64,000 nt of DNA, from NCBI GenBank assembly GCA_965223665.1, contig OZ245011.1, positions 1,088,001 to 1,152,000 on the forward strand, in the 5' to 3' direction. The translations under genes and the position numbers were made by a program. This stretch comes from Nitrospinaceae bacterium (lineage in GTDB: Bacteria; Nitrospinota; Nitrospinia; Nitrospinales; Nitrospinaceae). A model generated the notes under the pieces. The model was not told the DNA's origin and did not search any database. It saw only the letters and a program-made list of their open reading frames with translations. Below, piece by piece: positions 49,893-64,000 of the stretch (position 1 is the stretch's first letter; each line of letters starts with the position of its first letter).

Positions 49893-50219
49893 ATGAATAG
49901 AAAGCAAAAAGAAGCAATGGATGAAAAGTGGAAGCAAGTTGCCACTCAAGCCGTCACTAGCGAGGAGTTTAAAAACCGTCTGGTTGGAGATCCAGTTACT
50001 ATTATGAGTGAGTTTGGGCTTCAAATTCCAAACAATGTAGAAGTGAAGACCGGGACCGATAAGGTATTGAAATTTTTTCTTCCTGAGGATGCCTCCGATG
50101 AATTGAAAGCAGAAATCCAATGGTGGCGCTGGCGATTAGATATTATTCGCGAATTTGGCCGTGAAGAGAAAGATCAAGGTGTCCAACAGGCTGCCCCTGA
50201 AGCAGAAGAAGGAATTTGA
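49893..50219 (+). CDS. Small protein with nitrile-hydratase-leader (NHLP)-like domain
   Basis: QAVTSEEFKNRLVGDP...EFGLQIPNNVEVK....F.LP resembles the NHLP leader pattern A..D.EFK.RL..DP....E.G..IP..V.V. Confidence 0.6.
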   Translation: MNRKQKEAMDEKWKQVATQAVTSEEFKNRLVGDPVTIMSEFGLQIPNNVEVKTGTDKVLKFFLPEDASDELKAEIQWWRWRLDIIREFGREEKDQGVQQAAPEAEEGI

Positions 50220-56124: not shown

Positions 56125-56442
56125 TTATTCCTCAAACAGTTCTCTGCGCTCGATAATTTCATTAATTGGAATAAATTCTGGTTTATCATTTATTTCCGCA
56201 TCATAACGAAATCGAAAAAGCCAGCCGAACCCATTCCATCCCCAACCTCTTTGCTCCATGCAATCACTAAAAGTAGTTTGGCCATGGCCACCGGCAACAG
56301 TAGAGCACACATTCCTATCAATCAACAACTTTTGAGGATATTGCTGGGAATCATCTCTTTCAAAATGGTCGTTTGCTGAACAAGAGATATCAAAAAAAAC
56401 AATTGGAAAAATTAATATAATTATCACAATCCTGTCAAACAC
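56125..56442 (-). CDS. Small exported/lipoprotein hypothetical protein
   Basis: Hydrophobic N-terminus then ISC; C...DCMEQRGW motif. Confidence 0.55.
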   Translation of the reverse strand: MFDRIVIIILIFPIVFFDISCSANDHFERDDSQQYPQKLLIDRNVCSTVAGGHGQTTFSDCMEQRGWGWNGFGWLFRFRYDAEINDKPEFIPINEIIERRELFEE

Positions 56443-56606: not shown

Positions 56607-57089
56607 TCAACTTTTTTTCAAGTCATCATTAAGAAGTTTTTTGGCACAGGCACGTACCCAATCAGTGGGATCACCAACTGCAATTTCCTCAAGCTTTTGA
56701 TAAGCTCTGGGGTCATGAATTCGCGCAAGTGCACGAACTACAAACCTTCTAACATGAGGAGAAACATGTTGTGAGGAATCCAAAATACTGACCAAACAAT
56801 CCTCCGTCCCCAATCTTCCCAAAGCATCAATTGCAACGGCAGTTTCACTTTCATCAAATTCATTTAAGTTATGTCTAATAGCAGGAACAGCTAAAGTATT
56901 ACCCCAATGACCCAATAAATGCAGAGCCCTTTTAAGTTTATTTTTATCTTTACATTTGGGGGTTTCAGAAACAATCCTTTGTAATTCATTAAAATCTTGC
57001 GGTCGTTTTTTATCCAAAATACGTTCTAAACTATGTGAGCACCCTGAGTTCAAACTTATATTAAATTCATCAGAAACATCGATGGACAT
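56607..57089 (-). CDS. HEAT/PBS-lyase-like repeat protein
   Basis: RALHLLG, AIDALGRLG, HVRRFVVRALARI, DP..WVR..A; GAGG RBS. Confidence 0.8.
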   Translation of the reverse strand: MSIDVSDEFNISLNSGCSHSLERILDKKRPQDFNELQRIVSETPKCKDKNKLKRALHLLGHWGNTLAVPAIRHNLNEFDESETAVAIDALGRLGTEDCLVSILDSSQHVSPHVRRFVVRALARIHDPRAYQKLEEIAVGDPTDWVRACAKKLLNDDLKKS

Positions 57090-57124
57090 ATTTTCCTCTT
57101 TAGAATTTTAAAACTCTCAGAAAA

Positions 57125-57781
57125 TTAGCAACTTTCTATTCCGGGATCTCCTAAGATTCGGTTACATTGAAACTCGGTTAAATCCGGGGGTGGATTGGCA
57201 CCGGGATTAGGAAACATCAAATTATTCGGATCACTCACATGGGCATTAAAACCAACGACATGTACTAGTTCATGTGCAAAAATCCAGGGACCCGCACTAT
57301 CATCGACCCAAAATCCTCTACGCCCTGCTGGAAAAGACGAACAACCCTGAAATACAGGTCCATCTTGAATATAGTAACCAACAATATCGGCACCCTGGTT
57401 TCTACCCAAACTAAAAAGTTCATCTTCTTCATCTGTTGGGAAATTTTGAACCCCAAGGGGACAACTATTTTGATCAAGAAATAAAAGGTTTGGCCGGTCT
57501 TCCTGGATACTACCGGTAACATAAACCCAGACGTCACATTCTTGTTGCAGAACAAGGTTTGCATTATCAAGATTTAATTGTAATTTGGGGTTGGCACCAA
57601 CAATAGTAACCAAAGCAATGCGAACAAAAGGTTTGCCTTGTATTAATTGAAGGCGTTGTTTAAGTGAACGGGATTGAGGATTATCATTTCCATAAACTGT
57701 AAGAATATCTTTTCTAATGGAAATTGAGATATTTTTCCCCAAACAATTTTTAGAAATAGATTTCACGCTATAGGTAGCCAT
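57125..57781 (-). CDS. Metzincin-like zinc metalloprotease, no signal peptide
   Basis: HELVHVVGFNAH plus Met-turn NNLMFP; GAGG RBS. Confidence 0.8.
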   Translation of the reverse strand: MATYSVKSISKNCLGKNISISIRKDILTVYGNDNPQSRSLKQRLQLIQGKPFVRIALVTIVGANPKLQLNLDNANLVLQQECDVWVYVTGSIQEDRPNLLFLDQNSCPLGVQNFPTDEEDELFSLGRNQGADIVGYYIQDGPVFQGCSSFPAGRRGFWVDDSAGPWIFAHELVHVVGFNAHVSDPNNLMFPNPGANPPPDLTEFQCNRILGDPGIESC

Positions 57782-57790
57782 ACTTTCCTC

Positions 57791-58654
57791 TTATTGAAGG
57801 GAAACTAAAACTTGGACTAAATCTCTACCTTTTCCCAAACTGTTAAGAGCTTTACCAATAACAGATCCAAAAGCTCTTACGGAGTCAGTGGCTTTCATCG
57901 CATAACCTGGATTAGCTGAGGTAGTAAGAAGGTCTCCACGCTCAATGGCTCCAAAATCCGCATCCACTTTACAATAGACTCGACCCATCAATGCAATGGG
58001 CCATTGATTTTTCTTTGATGCATTTCTACCAAGAATTATTCCAGGCTTCAGGCTTCCCCCTCCAGCAATTATTCCAGCTACACATTTATCATATTCCTTC
58101 TCACTCTTGCTTAAAGTTCCTTTGTCGTTTATCACCATCACAGTCCCTGGTTCAACTGTTGGATCATCCTCAATAGTAAAATCTTCAGCACAATCGGCAT
58201 TTTGCAATATTATATCTCCGGAATCCCCATTTAAATGAATCGTAGCATGAGACAAAGTAGTATTATCACCACTACTAGAAAATAAAATCAAATCACCATC
58301 TTTTCCATTTCCGCCTAACCAAACATTCCCACCCTCGGAATCCAGTCGGATTCGATTTTGGCCCGCATCAGCTTTAAGAAGAATTTTACCATTCGTACCC
58401 GCACCTCCAGCCGTCATGCTACCATCAGCTCCTCTTAAGCGCATACTGGATTGAGATAGTGTTCCATTGTCTCCACTATCGGGGAAAATAACTAAGTCTC
58501 CGGATTCACCATTTCCCCCTAACCAAACTTTACTGCTCCCAGCATCAAGGTTTATTCTATTCTGACCATTGGTGCTTTTTAAAATCAAATCACCGTCAGA
58601 CCCATCTCCCCCCGAAACAATATTTCCGCTTCCACTATCCAATGACAATGCCAT
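57791..58654 (-). CDS. Gly-rich beta-repeat fibre protein with C-terminal Peptidase_G2-like autocleaving chaperone domain
   Basis: Repeats RI.LD....VWLGGNG..GDL..F; NADCAEDF, EPGTVM, PIALMGRVYCKV, I..GDLLTTS..PG.AM, IGKAL. Confidence 0.7.
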   Translation of the reverse strand: MALSLDSGSGNIVSGGDGSDGDLILKSTNGQNRINLDAGSSKVWLGGNGESGDLVIFPDSGDNGTLSQSSMRLRGADGSMTAGGAGTNGKILLKADAGQNRIRLDSEGGNVWLGGNGKDGDLILFSSSGDNTTLSHATIHLNGDSGDIILQNADCAEDFTIEDDPTVEPGTVMVINDKGTLSKSEKEYDKCVAGIIAGGGSLKPGIILGRNASKKNQWPIALMGRVYCKVDADFGAIERGDLLTTSANPGYAMKATDSVRAFGSVIGKALNSLGKGRDLVQVLVSLQ

Positions 58655-59370: not shown

Positions 59371-61287
59371 ATGGCCCTAAAAGGAAAAAATTCAATTAAA
59401 GATAGAATCCATCGTGCGATAATTTTTTCCAGTGGAATTTTAGTTTTAATCGCTTGCATCGGTTTTTCTAGTTACGAGTTCTTGGTATTTCGTTCAACGG
59501 CAACCAAACAAATTTTAAGCATTGCCAAATTAATCAGCATAAATAGTGCGAGCCCACTAGAATTTCAGGATAATAAAGGTGCGAAAGAACTACTCTACAC
59601 TTTAAGAGCAGAACCTAATATTCAATCCGCTGTGATTTACAACAAAAACAATCAAGTTTTTGCTAATTTTTCTTCTCCATCCAACAAACTTTCTTTTCCC
59701 CAAGAACCCTGGAATGATGGGGAATATTTCAAAGAAGGTCAATTATGGGTTTTTTACCCAATTAAATTTGAAGAGGCAAGATTAGGAACATTATTGATTT
59801 CTTCAGATTTAAGTCAAATGTACGAACGGTTATTAATTTATGGGGGAATCGTTTTAACCATTATTTTACTTTCACTTTTTATTGCTTTCCAATATTCATC
59901 TAAATTGCAAGATTCTGTTGCCCAACCCGTAATGGAGTTAGCTTCCACCATGCAGTCCGTTTCCAAGAAAAAAAGCTATTCCCTAAGGGCAGATAAAAAA
60001 CAGGACGATGAAATAGGGTTTTTAGTAGATCAATTTAATGACATGATCACCAAAATTCAATCCGCTGATATGGAATTAAAAAATTCTCATAATCTTTTAG
60101 AAAAAAGAGTAAAGGAAAGAACTTCAGATTTAGAAAAGGCTCAATTAGAGGCAGAATCAGCAAACCATGCTAAAAGTTTATTTTTGGCCAGCATGAGTCA
60201 TGAAATTAGAACTCCATTAAATGCAATTTTAGGTTTTTCCCAATTGCTCCAGTTAGCAACCAATATTAATCAAAAGCAAAGGGATCACGTTGAAAACATA
60301 TTAATGAGTGGTCGCCATTTACTAAGCCTGATTAATGATATTTTAGATATATCTAAGATTGAAGCGGGTTGCATGGAAGTGAACAATAAAGAATTTTCAT
60401 TGGATGAACTTATAAGCGGAATTTCAAAAATATTTAGACTTAGGTGTCAAGATAAGGGTCTCCAATGGATTTGCAATTCACCTCAAAACCTTCAAAAGGA
60501 TGTAGTTGGAGATGAGGGTAAAATCCGTCAAATTCTTATTAACTTAATTGGCAATGCCATTAAGTTTACTGAGTCTGGTTCGGTGCTTTTAGAAGTTACT
60601 CAAGATTCAGATTTTTATTTGTTTAAAGTAAGAGATACTGGTCCTGGAATTCCTAAGGATAGCTTAACAGAAATTTTTAAACCATTTAAACAAAACCAAC
60701 TTGGATTAGATAAGGGAGGAACTGGTTTAGGTCTTGCTATTTCATTTAAACAAGTCGAACTTTTGGGTGGGAATCTTAGGGTGGAATCTACGGAAGGAAA
60801 AGGAACCTGTTTTTCATTTAAAATTCAACTTTCTGAAGTTAAATCTCCAGACACAGATGAAAAAATTTCAGAACCCAAGATTAAACCTTTAGAAAATAGT
60901 CATCACCTTAAAGCTCTCGTTGTTGACGACGTAAAAGAAAATCGCGAGGCTCTTTGCCAAATGATTCGTTGGATGGGGGTTTCAGTAAAAGAAGCTCAAC
61001 ATGGAAAAGAAGCTTTAGAAATGATATCGGAAGATCCACCTGATGTAATATTTATGGACAATCAAATGCCAGTAATGAACGGCAGTGAAGCGATAGCAGA
61101 GATTAATAAAATTTATGGAAGTAACCGATTTAAAATTGTTATTGTCTCGGCTTCTGTATTAAATAATGAGAGAGAAAAGTTTTTTAGCCTGGGTTGTTCT
61201 GATTTCATAGGCAAACCCATTTTGATGGAAAAAGTTTATGAATACTTCAAAAGTTTGGAAGCGGAAAAAATTCCTTCAGAAAAATAA
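59371..61287 (+). CDS. Hybrid sensor kinase with YfiN-like (CHASE8) periplasmic domain, HAMP, HisKA, HATPase, REC
   Basis: NSASPLEFQD...A.E.L..L...PNI.SA.IY....VFA; DEIGFLVDQFNDM; MSHEIRTPLNAI; FMDNQMP. Confidence 0.9.
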   Translation: MALKGKNSIKDRIHRAIIFSSGILVLIACIGFSSYEFLVFRSTATKQILSIAKLISINSASPLEFQDNKGAKELLYTLRAEPNIQSAVIYNKNNQVFANFSSPSNKLSFPQEPWNDGEYFKEGQLWVFYPIKFEEARLGTLLISSDLSQMYERLLIYGGIVLTIILLSLFIAFQYSSKLQDSVAQPVMELASTMQSVSKKKSYSLRADKKQDDEIGFLVDQFNDMITKIQSADMELKNSHNLLEKRVKERTSDLEKAQLEAESANHAKSLFLASMSHEIRTPLNAILGFSQLLQLATNINQKQRDHVENILMSGRHLLSLINDILDISKIEAGCMEVNNKEFSLDELISGISKIFRLRCQDKGLQWICNSPQNLQKDVVGDEGKIRQILINLIGNAIKFTESGSVLLEVTQDSDFYLFKVRDTGPGIPKDSLTEIFKPFKQNQLGLDKGGTGLGLAISFKQVELLGGNLRVESTEGKGTCFSFKIQLSEVKSPDTDEKISEPKIKPLENSHHLKALVVDDVKENREALCQMIRWMGVSVKEAQHGKEALEMISEDPPDVIFMDNQMPVMNGSEAIAEINKIYGSNRFKIVIVSASVLNNEREKFFSLGCSDFIGKPILMEKVYEYFKSLEAEKIPSEK

Positions 61288-61392: not shown

Positions 61393-64000
61393 TTAATATT
61401 GATCAATCTCTTTCCATTGAGTCCCGTTAAAGAAATTTAGTTTATCGGTATTGATATTATAGATCACTAAACCTTCAGGAATATTATCCATCAAATCTCT
61501 TTGCCCTTGATACATTCTTGGAGGAAGAAACCCTTGATCCGTAGAGTCTACACCCAATATAACATTAGGATGTTGAGGTGAGATATCATTTCCTATTTGC
61601 AGTCCCTCATCGGAAAAGAAATTTCCGTTGGATCCCATTAATACTTTTGCGGGGGCATTCCAAATATTGGTGGATGATGCATAAGAAGTATGAAAACCAT
61701 AAAACTCTGATTCTGAATTTGAATTCTCCAAGTCTCTTATGTTTCCTTCAAACGGAAGATTATAGAATCGATTTTGTGCATTTGACCACAATCCCCATTT
61801 ATCAGTGGAATCAATAATTACCGCTGTAGAGTATTTTCTAGGAACATTCCCTTCATATGGAGATTCCTGCAGAAAAATATCATTTATCGAACAATGGAAA
61901 CAGATATTGTTTCTACCACTTTCAATATGTAATCCAACGTTCATAAAGTTCATTGTGATATTTTCTAAATGATTCTTATTAAATCCATTGGATCCCTCTA
62001 CCCCACTGGCTAAATAAGCTCCTCGGGTCATTAAGCGAAAGGAAACACTGGATAAAGTATTTTGCTCACAGACACTGGTGCCAGGGCCGCACATCATTAA
62101 AATACCTTCCCTTGCGTTTCCAATATGAACATTTTCAATCGTATTGTGAATTAATTGAACGGAAGTATTGGTGTCCTGCATGTGTTCAGGAATCATACCA
62201 ATTCCAATAACTCCGTTAGACCAATCCCTATAATCCACTCCACCATGTATTGTTAAATCTTTTATGGTGACATAACTTGTTGAAATTCGAATCATGACCA
62301 AGTCTTTTGATCCACCTTTGAGGACCGTTGCTTTACCAGAGCCACGTATTGTAATTCTGTTATTTTTATTTGTTTCAGAAGGTTGATCGCTGGAATCATT
62401 TTCTGATCTTAAGAAAATGCCATTTTTCATTACTTTTCCTTCATACGTATCACCTGAGCCGGTTTTTCCTTTAATCAAATATTGACCCGGTGGGAAATAC
62501 ACTGTTCCGCCTCCGAAATTATTTTCATATAAGGAATCCACGGCTGCTTGAATAGCTGAGGTATCATCGTTACTGCCATCTCCTTTGGCACCAAAGTCTT
62601 TAACATTTACAAAATAGTCGCTAGATGAACCTACCTCTTCTTGAATCACCGTCACCATCTGCGTATCATTACTTGAGTTTCCTACGTGGTCTGTCGCAGT
62701 CCATGTAACCGTAGTTGTTCCCAAGGGGAACATAGAGGGGGCATTATTGGTGACAGTATTCACTTCTACGTTATCTGTTACCGAGGGACTACCCAATTCT
62801 ACATTGGCTTCAGAATCAAGAGTGGTCACACTGACATTCACAGGGGCATTTATTAGAGGGGGTGTTGTATCCTGAATTGTAATTTTCTGCATATCGGTTC
62901 CAACATTGCCTGAAGTATCCGTCGCCGTCCACATTACATCAGTTGTACCTAAAGGAAATTGAGAGGGTGAATCACTGGTAATAGAGGCAACCGCTACATC
63001 GTCAGTGGCACTTGCAGTGCCGATATCAATTTGACTGAGATGGCCCGTGGCTTCAACAACCATATCAGAAGGTGCCGAAACTACAGGTGGAAGCGTGTCG
63101 TCTCCTGAGGACTGAGGAAGGACATATTCAATCTTGAGTTCGGGGTGCTCACCTGTATTAGCTTCTCTCGACCTTAAATCAATTCCATCATTGGTTCCAC
63201 TGGATTTAATTATAAACCCATTATTTGCAACATTTCCACTGACCCAATCTTGAACCACCTGGACGCCAGCTGCATTTAAATTCAGCGTGTGACCTAAACC
63301 AGAATTAGGAGCTATAATTCCTAAGATTTCGGTTCCCACTGATCCATTTTGAATTATACTTTCCCAACTTGCATCGGCTTCTGTCCATGGGGTATTTACT
63401 TGATATATCCAATACTCCCCAGTACTTTGATTAAAAATATCTAGCTTAATTGAAACAGACTTAATTAAAGCCTTAGAAGGAATGCTTGAAATATCCCATG
63501 ACAACAAAGACGAAACGGGACCAAACTTTCCATTAACTGGATCTAAGTCCACTTCATCAGCAAGCAAATCACTCAATGTTCCATAACTTTCTTGCGGCGA
63601 GGTTTTTCGAATACATGCGTCTTTAGTGCCTTTGTAAGTAGAGTTTGGAAAAACACCATCTTTAAAACTCATTACTAAATTATCAGATTGTTTTTGCACA
63701 ACTGAAATTGTTTGTGTATCGGTACTTACATTTCCTGATGTATCTACAGCAGACCAGGTTACTGTTGTTGAACCTACTGGAAATACAGAGGGAGCATCAT
63801 TGCTTATTGATTGAACTTCAACGGCATCTGTTGCAGTCGCTTGTCCAATATTTACCGTAGCTTCAGTTCCGTCAATATCAACAGTAATATCAGCAGGAAC
63901 CGTAATTACCGGTGCAGTCGTATCTTGGACTGTAACCTTCTGTTGATCTGTAGCTGTATTCCCTGAGGTATCAGTGGCTGTCCATGTAACTGTAGTTGAC
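61393..64000 (-). CDS. Large HYR/DNRLRE-repeat protein with pectate-lyase-like (tailspike-type) beta-helix; 5' end outside the window
   Basis: Frame is open from 63999 (STTVTWTATDTSGN...) through the track start 63699; FVNVKDFGAKGDGSNDDTSAIQAA..GGGTVYFPPGQY; C-terminal GFLPPRM...GLVIYN...FNGTQW. Confidence 0.85.
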   Translation of the reverse strand, partial: STTVTWTATDTSGNTATDQQKVTVQDTTAPVITVPADITVDIDGTEATVNIGQATATDAVEVQSISNDAPSVFPVGSTTVTWSAVDTSGNVSTDTQTISVVQKQSDNLVMSFKDGVFPNSTYKGTKDACIRKTSPQESYGTLSDLLADEVDLDPVNGKFGPVSSLLSWDISSIPSKALIKSVSIKLDIFNQSTGEYWIYQVNTPWTEADASWESIIQNGSVGTEILGIIAPNSGLGHTLNLNAAGVQVVQDWVSGNVANNGFIIKSSGTNDGIDLRSREANTGEHPELKIEYVLPQSSGDDTLPPVVSAPSDMVVEATGHLSQIDIGTASATDDVAVASITSDSPSQFPLGTTDVMWTATDTSGNVGTDMQKITIQDTTPPLINAPVNVSVTTLDSEANVELGSPSVTDNVEVNTVTNNAPSMFPLGTTTVTWTATDHVGNSSNDTQMVTVIQEEVGSSSDYFVNVKDFGAKGDGSNDDTSAIQAAVDSLYENNFGGGTVYFPPGQYLIKGKTGSGDTYEGKVMKNGIFLRSENDSSDQPSETNKNNRITIRGSGKATVLKGGSKDLVMIRISTSYVTIKDLTIHGGVDYRDWSNGVIGIGMIPEHMQDTNTSVQLIHNTIENVHIGNAREGILMMCGPGTSVCEQNTLSSVSFRLMTRGAYLASGVEGSNGFNKNHLENITMNFMNVGLHIESGRNNICFHCSINDIFLQESPYEGNVPRKYSTAVIIDSTDKWGLWSNAQNRFYNLPFEGNIRDLENSNSESEFYGFHTSYASSTNIWNAPAKVLMGSNGNFFSDEGLQIGNDISPQHPNVILGVDSTDQGFLPPRMYQGQRDLMDNIPEGLVIYNINTDKLNFFNGTQWKEIDQY

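Follow-up and report, generated by a model that had tools for sequence, protein, structure and literature searches.

What can a short phage-like fibre be doing on a bacterial chromosome, with a protease gene directly behind it and no export signal on either product? The locus that raises this question lies in a stretch of 64,000 nucleotides from a Nitrospinaceae bacterium (assembly GCA_965223665.1, contig OZ245011.1, positions 1,088,001 to 1,152,000), which is called the window hereafter and to whose numbering all positions refer unless another locus is named. Three genes stand there in a row on the reverse strand: gene 1 for a Gly-rich fibre whose C-terminal domain resembles the intramolecular chaperone of phi29 gp12, gene 2 for a protease of metzincin type with an N-terminal extension, the tag, and gene 3 for a HEAT-repeat protein. 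An earlier note, made from the letters alone, had taken them for a new three-gene system. We consider that they belong to a widespread, apparently undescribed polymorphic carrier-cargo module, which we regard as real. As to how it works, we give a probability of about one half to a likely two-component arrangement in which the self-cleaving fibre docks the tagged protease and the HEAT protein restrains this protease in the producer.

To what extent do the three genes belong together? Scans with the protease gave 69 loci, and 62 of them were kept as true members of the family after weak motif-only matches (L034-37 and L067-69) had been dropped. All three genes are found together in 46 of the 62, so the co-occurrence for which the earlier note wished to search gene neighbourhoods does exist. 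The fibre adjoins the protease in 48 loci, upstream in 44 and downstream in 4. When all open reading frames (ORFs) within 6 kb were clustered, neither another conserved neighbour of the trio nor a recurring defence neighbour was found. The protease loci are distributed over Nitrospinota, Nitrospirota, Cyanobacteriota, Pseudomonadota, Chloroflexota, Acidobacteriota, Actinomycetota, Bacteroidota and one Methanophagales archaeon, and the trio is seen in all these groups except at the Bacteroidota locus, in which gene 2 is followed by Ns. Cultured species with the module include Roseovarius confluentis, Teredinibacter waterburyi and Belnapia moabensis. On the protease tree, from which 7 duplicates were left out, the phyla are intermingled, and the fibre is carried by 2 of 120 genomes of the host's phylum; such intermingling and patchiness fit horizontal spread. 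In the host itself, whose genome is 4.35 Mb, each gene of the trio has one copy. Within the limited sensitivity of these searches, IMG/VR scans gave no relatives of gene 1, gene 2 or the tag, GenBank phages gave no sequence match to gene 1, and the plasmid search returned two distant gene-2 matches only.

What stays constant from one locus to another? An N-terminal extension of 50 residues is present in 50 of the 62 proteases, and a fibre stands beside 48 of the 48 such loci with assessable context but beside none of the 12 tagless ones. A profile of the extension alone retrieved 70 representatives among 1.84 billion, a few of them being low-complexity chance matches or chimeric. Besides the gene 2 family, the tag is borne by a second metzincin clade and by proteins with GDPD and PLAT, C25, chlorophyllase-like, galactose-oxidase-like, M36 or Fn3 domains, at the N- or the C-terminus, and at both ends in the galactose-oxidase-like protein. 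A hydrophobic leader is missing from all of 22 tagged proteins, and each of 28 genomes has a single copy of the tag, linked to a fibre, which means one cargo per genome. The reverse approach, starting from the fibre, leads to the same linkage. The gene 1 profile, run against genomes, pointed to 20 new places, of which 18 were fetched, a near-copy (G184, of G185) and a fibre at a contig end (L130) being left out of the 18. In seven of these, the gene next to the fibre encodes a second-clade metzincin; the other next genes encode a lipase 3, a phosphoesterase, a PLAT protein, an Fn3-like fragment or unknown proteins. A hidden Markov model of the tag, built before these loci had been seen, matches the next gene in 9 of the 18, and a strict terminal motif rule is satisfied by 10 of the 18 next genes (6 of 11 if metzincins are set aside) against backgrounds of 151/3223 (4.7%) and 15/538 (2.8%). 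Thus, the constant parts are the signal-less fibre and the terminal tag, and the enzyme is interchangeable; a constant trafficking module with variable enzymatic cargo is what marks a polymorphic effector system, and it is this that the linkage data display. Beside 13 more distant fibres with the chaperone stood neither a tagged gene nor a metzincin or HEAT gene, and 11 of these fibres have an N-terminal hydrophobic stretch (1.9 or more) against 0 of the 18; since they were selected as weaker matches, this is a contrast between subfamilies.

Is the HEAT gene another constant part? Gene 3 matches HEAT_2 (E 8.8e-14), as the earlier note had read it, and a HEAT gene adjoins the protease in 59 of the 62 family loci. 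Among the loci found from the fibre, it stands beside second-clade metzincin cargo in 7 of 7 cases and beside other assessable cargo in 0 of 10, so that HEAT tracks the metzincin cargo and not the fibre. A metzincin-HEAT fusion protein also exists (P0271). The partner role that had been proposed for gene 3 gains from this linkage and this fusion, and its product is likely a cytoplasmic binder, inhibitor or chaperone of the metzincin. Of the three-gene system of the earlier note, therefore, the co-occurrence stands, but the trio is not fixed, as the enzyme can be exchanged and HEAT comes only with metzincin cargo. Positions of the features are collected in Table 1.

Table 1. Features of the three-gene locus, with positions in the window
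Feature	Position	Strand	Remark
Gene 1	57791..58654	-	287 aa; signal-less fibre precursor, predicted homotrimer, likely carrier
Gene 1 residues 1-153, Gly-rich beta-strand shaft	58196..58654	-	predicted mature fibre; two 68-aa units
NADCAEDF motif, gene 1 residues 152-159	58178..58201	-	predicted cleavage between A153 and D154
Predicted catalytic E157 of gene 1	58186-58184	-	within NADCAEDF
Gene 1 residues 154-287, gp12-type intramolecular chaperone fold	57794..58195	-	structure match to 3gqh_A
Gene 2	57125-57781	-	218 aa; N-terminal tag and metzincin domain
Gene 2 residues 1-50, portable three-helix tag	57632..57781	-	three S[LVI][RK] units, C13
Gene 2 residues 51-218, metzincin (reprolysin-like) catalytic domain	57128..57631	-	pLDDT 93.5 model, structure matches
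HExxHxxGxxxH of gene 2	57274-57239	-	H170-E-L-V-H174-V-V-G-F-N-A-H181
Gene 3	56607..57089	-	160 aa; HEAT-repeat protein

On what grounds can gene 1 be called a relative of a phage appendage? The roughly 150 residues of duplicated Gly-rich repeats that had been noticed by eye show a period of 68, at which 36 of 82 positions are identical against 1-12 at other offsets from 60 to 75, and the number of shaft units differs among relatives. The monomer model of this shaft is of low confidence (pLDDT 44-64 per 10 residues), and with it as query no good fold match was found for residues 1-153. High confidence begins only at about residue 160 of the model (block pLDDT mostly 78-96 over 161-287), beyond the NADCAEDF motif, which lies where the earlier note had placed it. 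The best structure match of residues 154-285 is 3gqh_A, the released C-terminal fragment of phi29 gp12 (Z 13.9, rmsd 2.2, 111 aligned); the alignment begins at D154, which falls on gp12 D692, and E157 is thereby in register with E695 of gp12, which we take to be the catalytic residue. In the passages that deal with this processing, mature gp12* is given as ending at residue 691 (PMC6542822), and the C-terminal domain is described as cleaved after folding (PMC3357383). D154, A156, E157 and F159 (DxAExF) are invariant in 125 of 125 aligned relatives, and models of phage pre-neck appendages and fibres in BFVD match the chaperone domain structurally. The likeness to Peptidase_G2 that the earlier note had seen thus holds for fold and register; it does not extend to the Pfam model PF11962, which gives no match on gene 1 and weakly matches 5 of 124 relatives (best E 0.013). 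Because capsid decoration proteins share the fold and the Pfam model does not match, we call gene 1, on its model, a gp12-type relative and not a member of the Pfam family. It would trimerise and cut itself between A153 and D154 by means of E157. By sequence, neither gene 1 nor gene 2 has a match in Pfam or a credible one in NCBIfam, and searches of PDB sequences with gene 1 and its profile returned a chance match to a ribosomal protein or nothing. Gene 1 has at least 4,033 sequence relatives, many probably through the chaperone domain only, and a hydrophobic leader is absent in 120 of 120 homologues. As a separate observation, many stand-alone Acidobacteriota fibres (L098-L100, L106-L118) have hydrophobic leaders and the same gp12-type C-terminal domain, a G2-type parallel to the adhesins called MATs in Bdellovibrio.

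Gene 2 is, by its model, of metzincin fold and a predicted zinc protease. The zinc motif and Met-turn that were read from its sequence are well kept: all 63 aligned sequences share H170, E171, H174 and H181, 60 of them have M189 of the turn (N-L-M189), and the motif is that of metzincins with a one-residue insertion. Residues 49-218 of the model match metzincins, with E 4.6e-7 to profragilysin by Foldseek and Z 12.8 to 1dth in the VIA structure alignment; 97 PDB matches have E 0.001 or better, and those listed are of metzincin type. Since Cys pairs covary or are invariant, three disulfides are predicted. In a set of 116 distinct sequences, 114 have both C107 and C147; 84 have the pair C82 and C206 and 17 have neither, C206 never standing alone; C13 occurs together with C218 in 98, eight sequences lack both and two have only one of them, although these eight double absences are largely one clade and tagless rows and so amount to few independent events. 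Longer relatives fuse the metzincin domain to other parts (P0215-P0233; L066:5062-6327): it lies C-terminal to LGFP, FG-GAP, PF17660 or other repeat domains, or alternatively behind an acidic region and OmpA with a HEAT gene adjoining.

How might these parts work together? Gene 1 would trimerise through its C-terminal chaperone of phi29 gp12 type, fold in the cytoplasm and cut the chaperone off to leave a short beta fibre. The tag, likely a fibre-docking or sorting module as far as its linkage tells, would dock on this three-fold fibre; its three units would suit a three-fold partner. The HEAT protein would bind and restrain the protease inside the producer. Release would occur without Sec, and our guess is lysis or vesicles. 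Only then might the predicted disulfides form, C13-C218 tying the tag to the end of the catalytic domain. The variable shaft would bind a foreign surface and thereby concentrate the hydrolase there, and the purpose may most probably be antagonism or defence against other cells or grazers. The earlier note had remarked that the fibre lacks a catalytic head; this absence would be explained if the tagged enzyme supplies the head in trans. Other genomes would load lipases, phosphoesterases, glutaminases and other proteases on the same kind of fibre, which would make the system polymorphic. A complex prediction of three copies of gene 1 with the tag scored 0.02; this is no answer and is used neither way.

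It is to be noted that a number of points weigh against docking on the fibre as we propose it. The tagless, fibre-less proteases (types B and C) form one clade (98/96), so that the contrast between tagged and tagless loci is a single event. A looser motif rule raises the count among the 18 next genes to 12 (1.9% and 1.5% in the background), but it was written after these cargos had been seen. In a blind set of eight new fibres from another cyanobacterial order, for which the rule was fixed beforehand, the rule was satisfied by the immediate neighbour of three fibres, in one case spuriously through residues upstream of the likely start; at five fibres one of the two following genes was tagged, two of these loci (L163 and L165) being near-copies; and 2 of 8 fibres had no cargo. 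The linkage of tag and fibre is real but looser than in-sample. From the same set comes a third type of protease with an accessory gene of its own in front, the order being fibre, unknown accessory gene and tagged M6/reprolysin-like protease (L163:2058-4636, L165, L168). L163 and L165 further add a tagged glutaminase, that of L163 with a canonical C-terminal tag (E 8e-15) in the operon of the fibre, so that two cargos occur in one operon. A common docking surface is not obvious, because fibre shafts vary widely and the fibre of L048 (4968-5855), with the same Gly-rich repeats and with tagged protease and HEAT beside it, has a predicted coiled coil at its end where the chaperone would be. The decoration proteins that share the chaperone fold reach Z 12.7 and 11.0, no export gene linked to the module was found among its conserved neighbours, and many cargos look like ordinary secreted hydrolases.

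What do the proteases without a tag use instead? In 11 of 12, all of one clade, the protease is paired with a beta protein of 86-97 aa, fused or separate, sometimes together with SCP2, and HEAT is present (L025:5971-7626, L028, L029, L057-59; L030, L031, L061, L063, L064). Among the nearest named Atlas clusters of this small protein are two families of AB5 B subunits (0.79, 0.75), which is a lead only; profile-profile comparison of its two families was weak (probability 13.8%), and no PDB sequence matched the partner proteins. The tagless variants are possibly a candidate signal-less AB5-like system in environmental bacteria. A bolder form of our proposal can be thought of, which we put forward tentatively and would not wager on: a stand-alone, machine-free class of effector delivery in which a domesticated phage appendage serves as a trimeric dart loading any enzyme with a tag of about 50 residues and three-fold pseudo-symmetry, an 'AB3' counterpart of AB5 toxins in at least seven bacterial phyla and archaea, whose protease could also switch to an AB5-like carrier.

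Might the tag instead be a signal for an unlinked secretion or packaging machine, such as an extracellular contractile injection system (eCIS), with the fibre as a co-exported adhesin or spare tail fibre that does not bind the cargo? The lack of signal peptides and the occurrence of the tag at either terminus, as in sorting signals, would agree with it. The host does have a complete-looking eCIS operon about 230 kb from the module (G000:C1:1375924-1401705, L161:9925 to L162:16705), with Pvc16_N, sheath, two tubes, CIS_tube, VgrG-like, CIS_TMP, eCIS_core on a 1875-aa protein, and AAA. A CHASE8 hybrid kinase (59371-61287, plus strand) is divergent from the module, and the paralogue most similar to it (59% over the full length) belongs to a TonB-receptor/YfiR operon that runs divergently from the eCIS locus. 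This paralogy hints at shared regulation of the two loci; comparison of their upstream regions gave no shared motif beyond matches of 8-14 bases. Of 47 module genomes, 33 have the tube family; in the host's phylum it occurs in 10 of 120 genomes, the two that carry the module among them. The first of these counts looked like strong dependence on eCIS. Matched controls removed it: in one matched order the tube occurs in 5 of 10 module genomes against 93/167 (56%) overall (Fisher p 0.75), and in a second matched order in 6 of 7 against 110/173 (64%) (Fisher p 0.42), so that dependence is not supported. Moreover, 14 of the 47 module genomes have no tube match, the host eCIS region has no tagged ORF, neighbour clustering does not place the module genes within an eCIS locus, the fibre lacks a virion-attachment domain, and the single-copy tag is linked to the fibre in all 28 genomes. 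We therefore think this explanation unlikely.

Unlikely as well, in our estimation, is a benign use of the same docking, by which the fibre would be a dockerin-like anchor that keeps hydrolases attached to particles, to matrix or to the surface of the producer itself and so serves nutrition or the remodelling of biofilm. The cargo classes (M28, M36, C25, lipase 3, galactose-oxidase-like, Fn3) are indeed common in scavenging secretomes. We prefer antagonism because one cargo per genome, cognate partner genes specific for the cargo and patchy spread fit conflict systems better, as does the absence of Sec signals; the Nitrospinaceae, moreover, are nitrite-oxidising autotrophs. It is also conceivable that the C-terminal domain stays uncleaved and serves as a trimeric base of capsid-decoration type, by which the fibre sits on a phage capsid or some other protein shell, for example as an anti-phage decoy with a protease. 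Decoration proteins and the base of the phi29 head fibre rank just below gp12 (Z 12.7 to 8.5), and XM1_gp53 is weakly matched by 4 of 124 relatives; nevertheless, the gp12 fragment is the best match and is aligned from the cleavage residue onwards, DxAExF is invariant and no shell gene is linked, which makes this very improbable. Least probable of all is the intracellular anti-phage module that the earlier note had offered as an option, the fibre sensing and the protease acting as effector, for although the module is small, mobile, patchy and free of export signals and has short or generic PADLOC matches (PDC-S05 over 21 residues; HEAT models), gene 2 has no such match, no defence gene recurs nearby, the covarying or invariant Cys pairs suggest an oxidising workplace and relatives are fused to surface-binding repeat domains.

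With the carrier-and-cargo reading preferred, what do the surroundings of the locus add? Gaps of 9 and 35 bp separate the three genes, their ribosome-binding sites are purine-rich (GGGGGAGA, GAGGA, AGAGGA), and a hydropathy heuristic, not SignalP, finds no N-terminal hydrophobic stretch in any of the three proteins, in agreement with what had been read from the sequence. The flanks are AT-rich as described (27.8% and 26.2% GC against 38% for the contig), which says little because both are intergenic. Against the congeneric locus L001, whose protease is 93% identical to gene 2, synonymous and non-synonymous codon differences number 100:21, 69:16 and 44:13 for genes 1, 2 and 3; as the differences are mostly synonymous, this comparison indicates that the genes are real and under purifying selection. 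Unrelated neighbours are alaS, a DnaE-type polymerase and the kinase already mentioned, together with a gene, recognised by eye, presumably for monomeric isocitrate dehydrogenase. That no phage genes lie nearby holds for the ORFs checked, those in 48-64 kb of the window with six of them compared with PHROGs, except that a DNRLRE, HYR and pectate-lyase-like protein (61393-63699, minus strand) matches phage tailspike models, apparently through its pectate-lyase domain. Downstream of alaS lies a small NHLP-leader-like protein (49893-50219, plus strand; TIGR03793, below cut-off) with no RiPP enzymes seen nearby, and downstream of the trio a 105-aa protein with a hydrophobic leader and Cys/Trp motifs (56125-56442, minus strand), conserved among the loci only in L001. 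Promoter and terminator scans of the locus stayed at chance level.

If these proposals are right, an apparently undescribed grammar of signal-less self-cleaving fibre, terminal tag, variable enzyme and cognate partner would cover a large family of hypothetical proteins, and the tag would be a marker for finding new microbial effector enzymes. Should docking be true, a phage appendage chaperone has been reused for a cellular carrier, which would provide a minimal two-protein loading signal for study, and the locus would point to an unexpected conflict system in marine nitrite oxidisers.

How does such a module compare with known systems? The earlier note recognised no named system; we have found none either, and keyword searches of open-access text, without supplements, gave no description of this layout. 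The parts consulted of an eCIS survey mention S74 and DUF4157 and not this layout (PMC8213781). Towards phi29 gp12 (PDB 3GQH/3SUC; PF11962), gene 1 shares the fold of residues 154-285 from the cleavage residue onwards and the invariant acidic motif; it differs in falling below the Pfam cut-off, in having neither virion-attachment arm nor catalytic beta-helix, and in being chromosomal, without a sequence match in the phage collections searched and linked to separately encoded tagged enzymes. The MAT fibres of Bdellovibrio, an S74 subgroup, are likewise described as trimeric fibres that cells have taken over from phages, with variable tips and a self-cleaving chaperone (PMC10769870). The same account gives them signal peptides, an S74 chaperone with SDxxxK Ser/Lys and a length of about 1,000 aa (PMC10769870), whereas gene 1 has no leader, is of gp12 type (DxAExF) and has a cargo partner, and S74 is absent among the best 25 of 54 Pfam families. 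With reprolysin-, pappalysin- and fragilysin-type metzincins, gene 2 has in common the catalytic fold, three His ligands, the Glu and the Met-turn, but an additional residue stands ahead of its third His, it has neither Pfam match nor signal peptide, and its N-terminal tag takes the place of the prodomain.

A further comparison is with the AB5 toxins CfxAB and EcxAB (PDB 4L6T), in which, as far as the text consulted goes, a metzincin is encoded beside an oligomeric carrier, the enzyme can be exchanged on the carrier, and an anchor segment is tied to the enzyme by a disulfide, as A1-A2 (PMC11610972), the disulfide here being predicted. The carrier here is a predicted trimeric fibre with a gp12-type domain and not an OB-fold pentamer of B subunits, Sec signals are missing, a cognate HEAT gene is present, and EcxA is only a distant fold match to gene 2 (Z 5.1). 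With polymorphic toxin systems, as portrayed in the parts consulted of their survey, the module has in common a constant trafficking part, a variable enzyme, an adjacent partner gene, ImmHEAT being listed among such partners, and a patchy distribution across phyla (Zhang et al. 2012, PMC3482391). Here, separate genes encode carrier and enzyme, which are probably joined via the terminal tag, and this layout lies outside the export modes named there, T2SS, T5SS, T6SS, T7SS, PVC, TcdB/TcaC, PrsW and MuF (PMC3482391). By analogy, the module may work like an AB toxin or a polymorphic toxin system, using a phage-type fibre as the MATs do.

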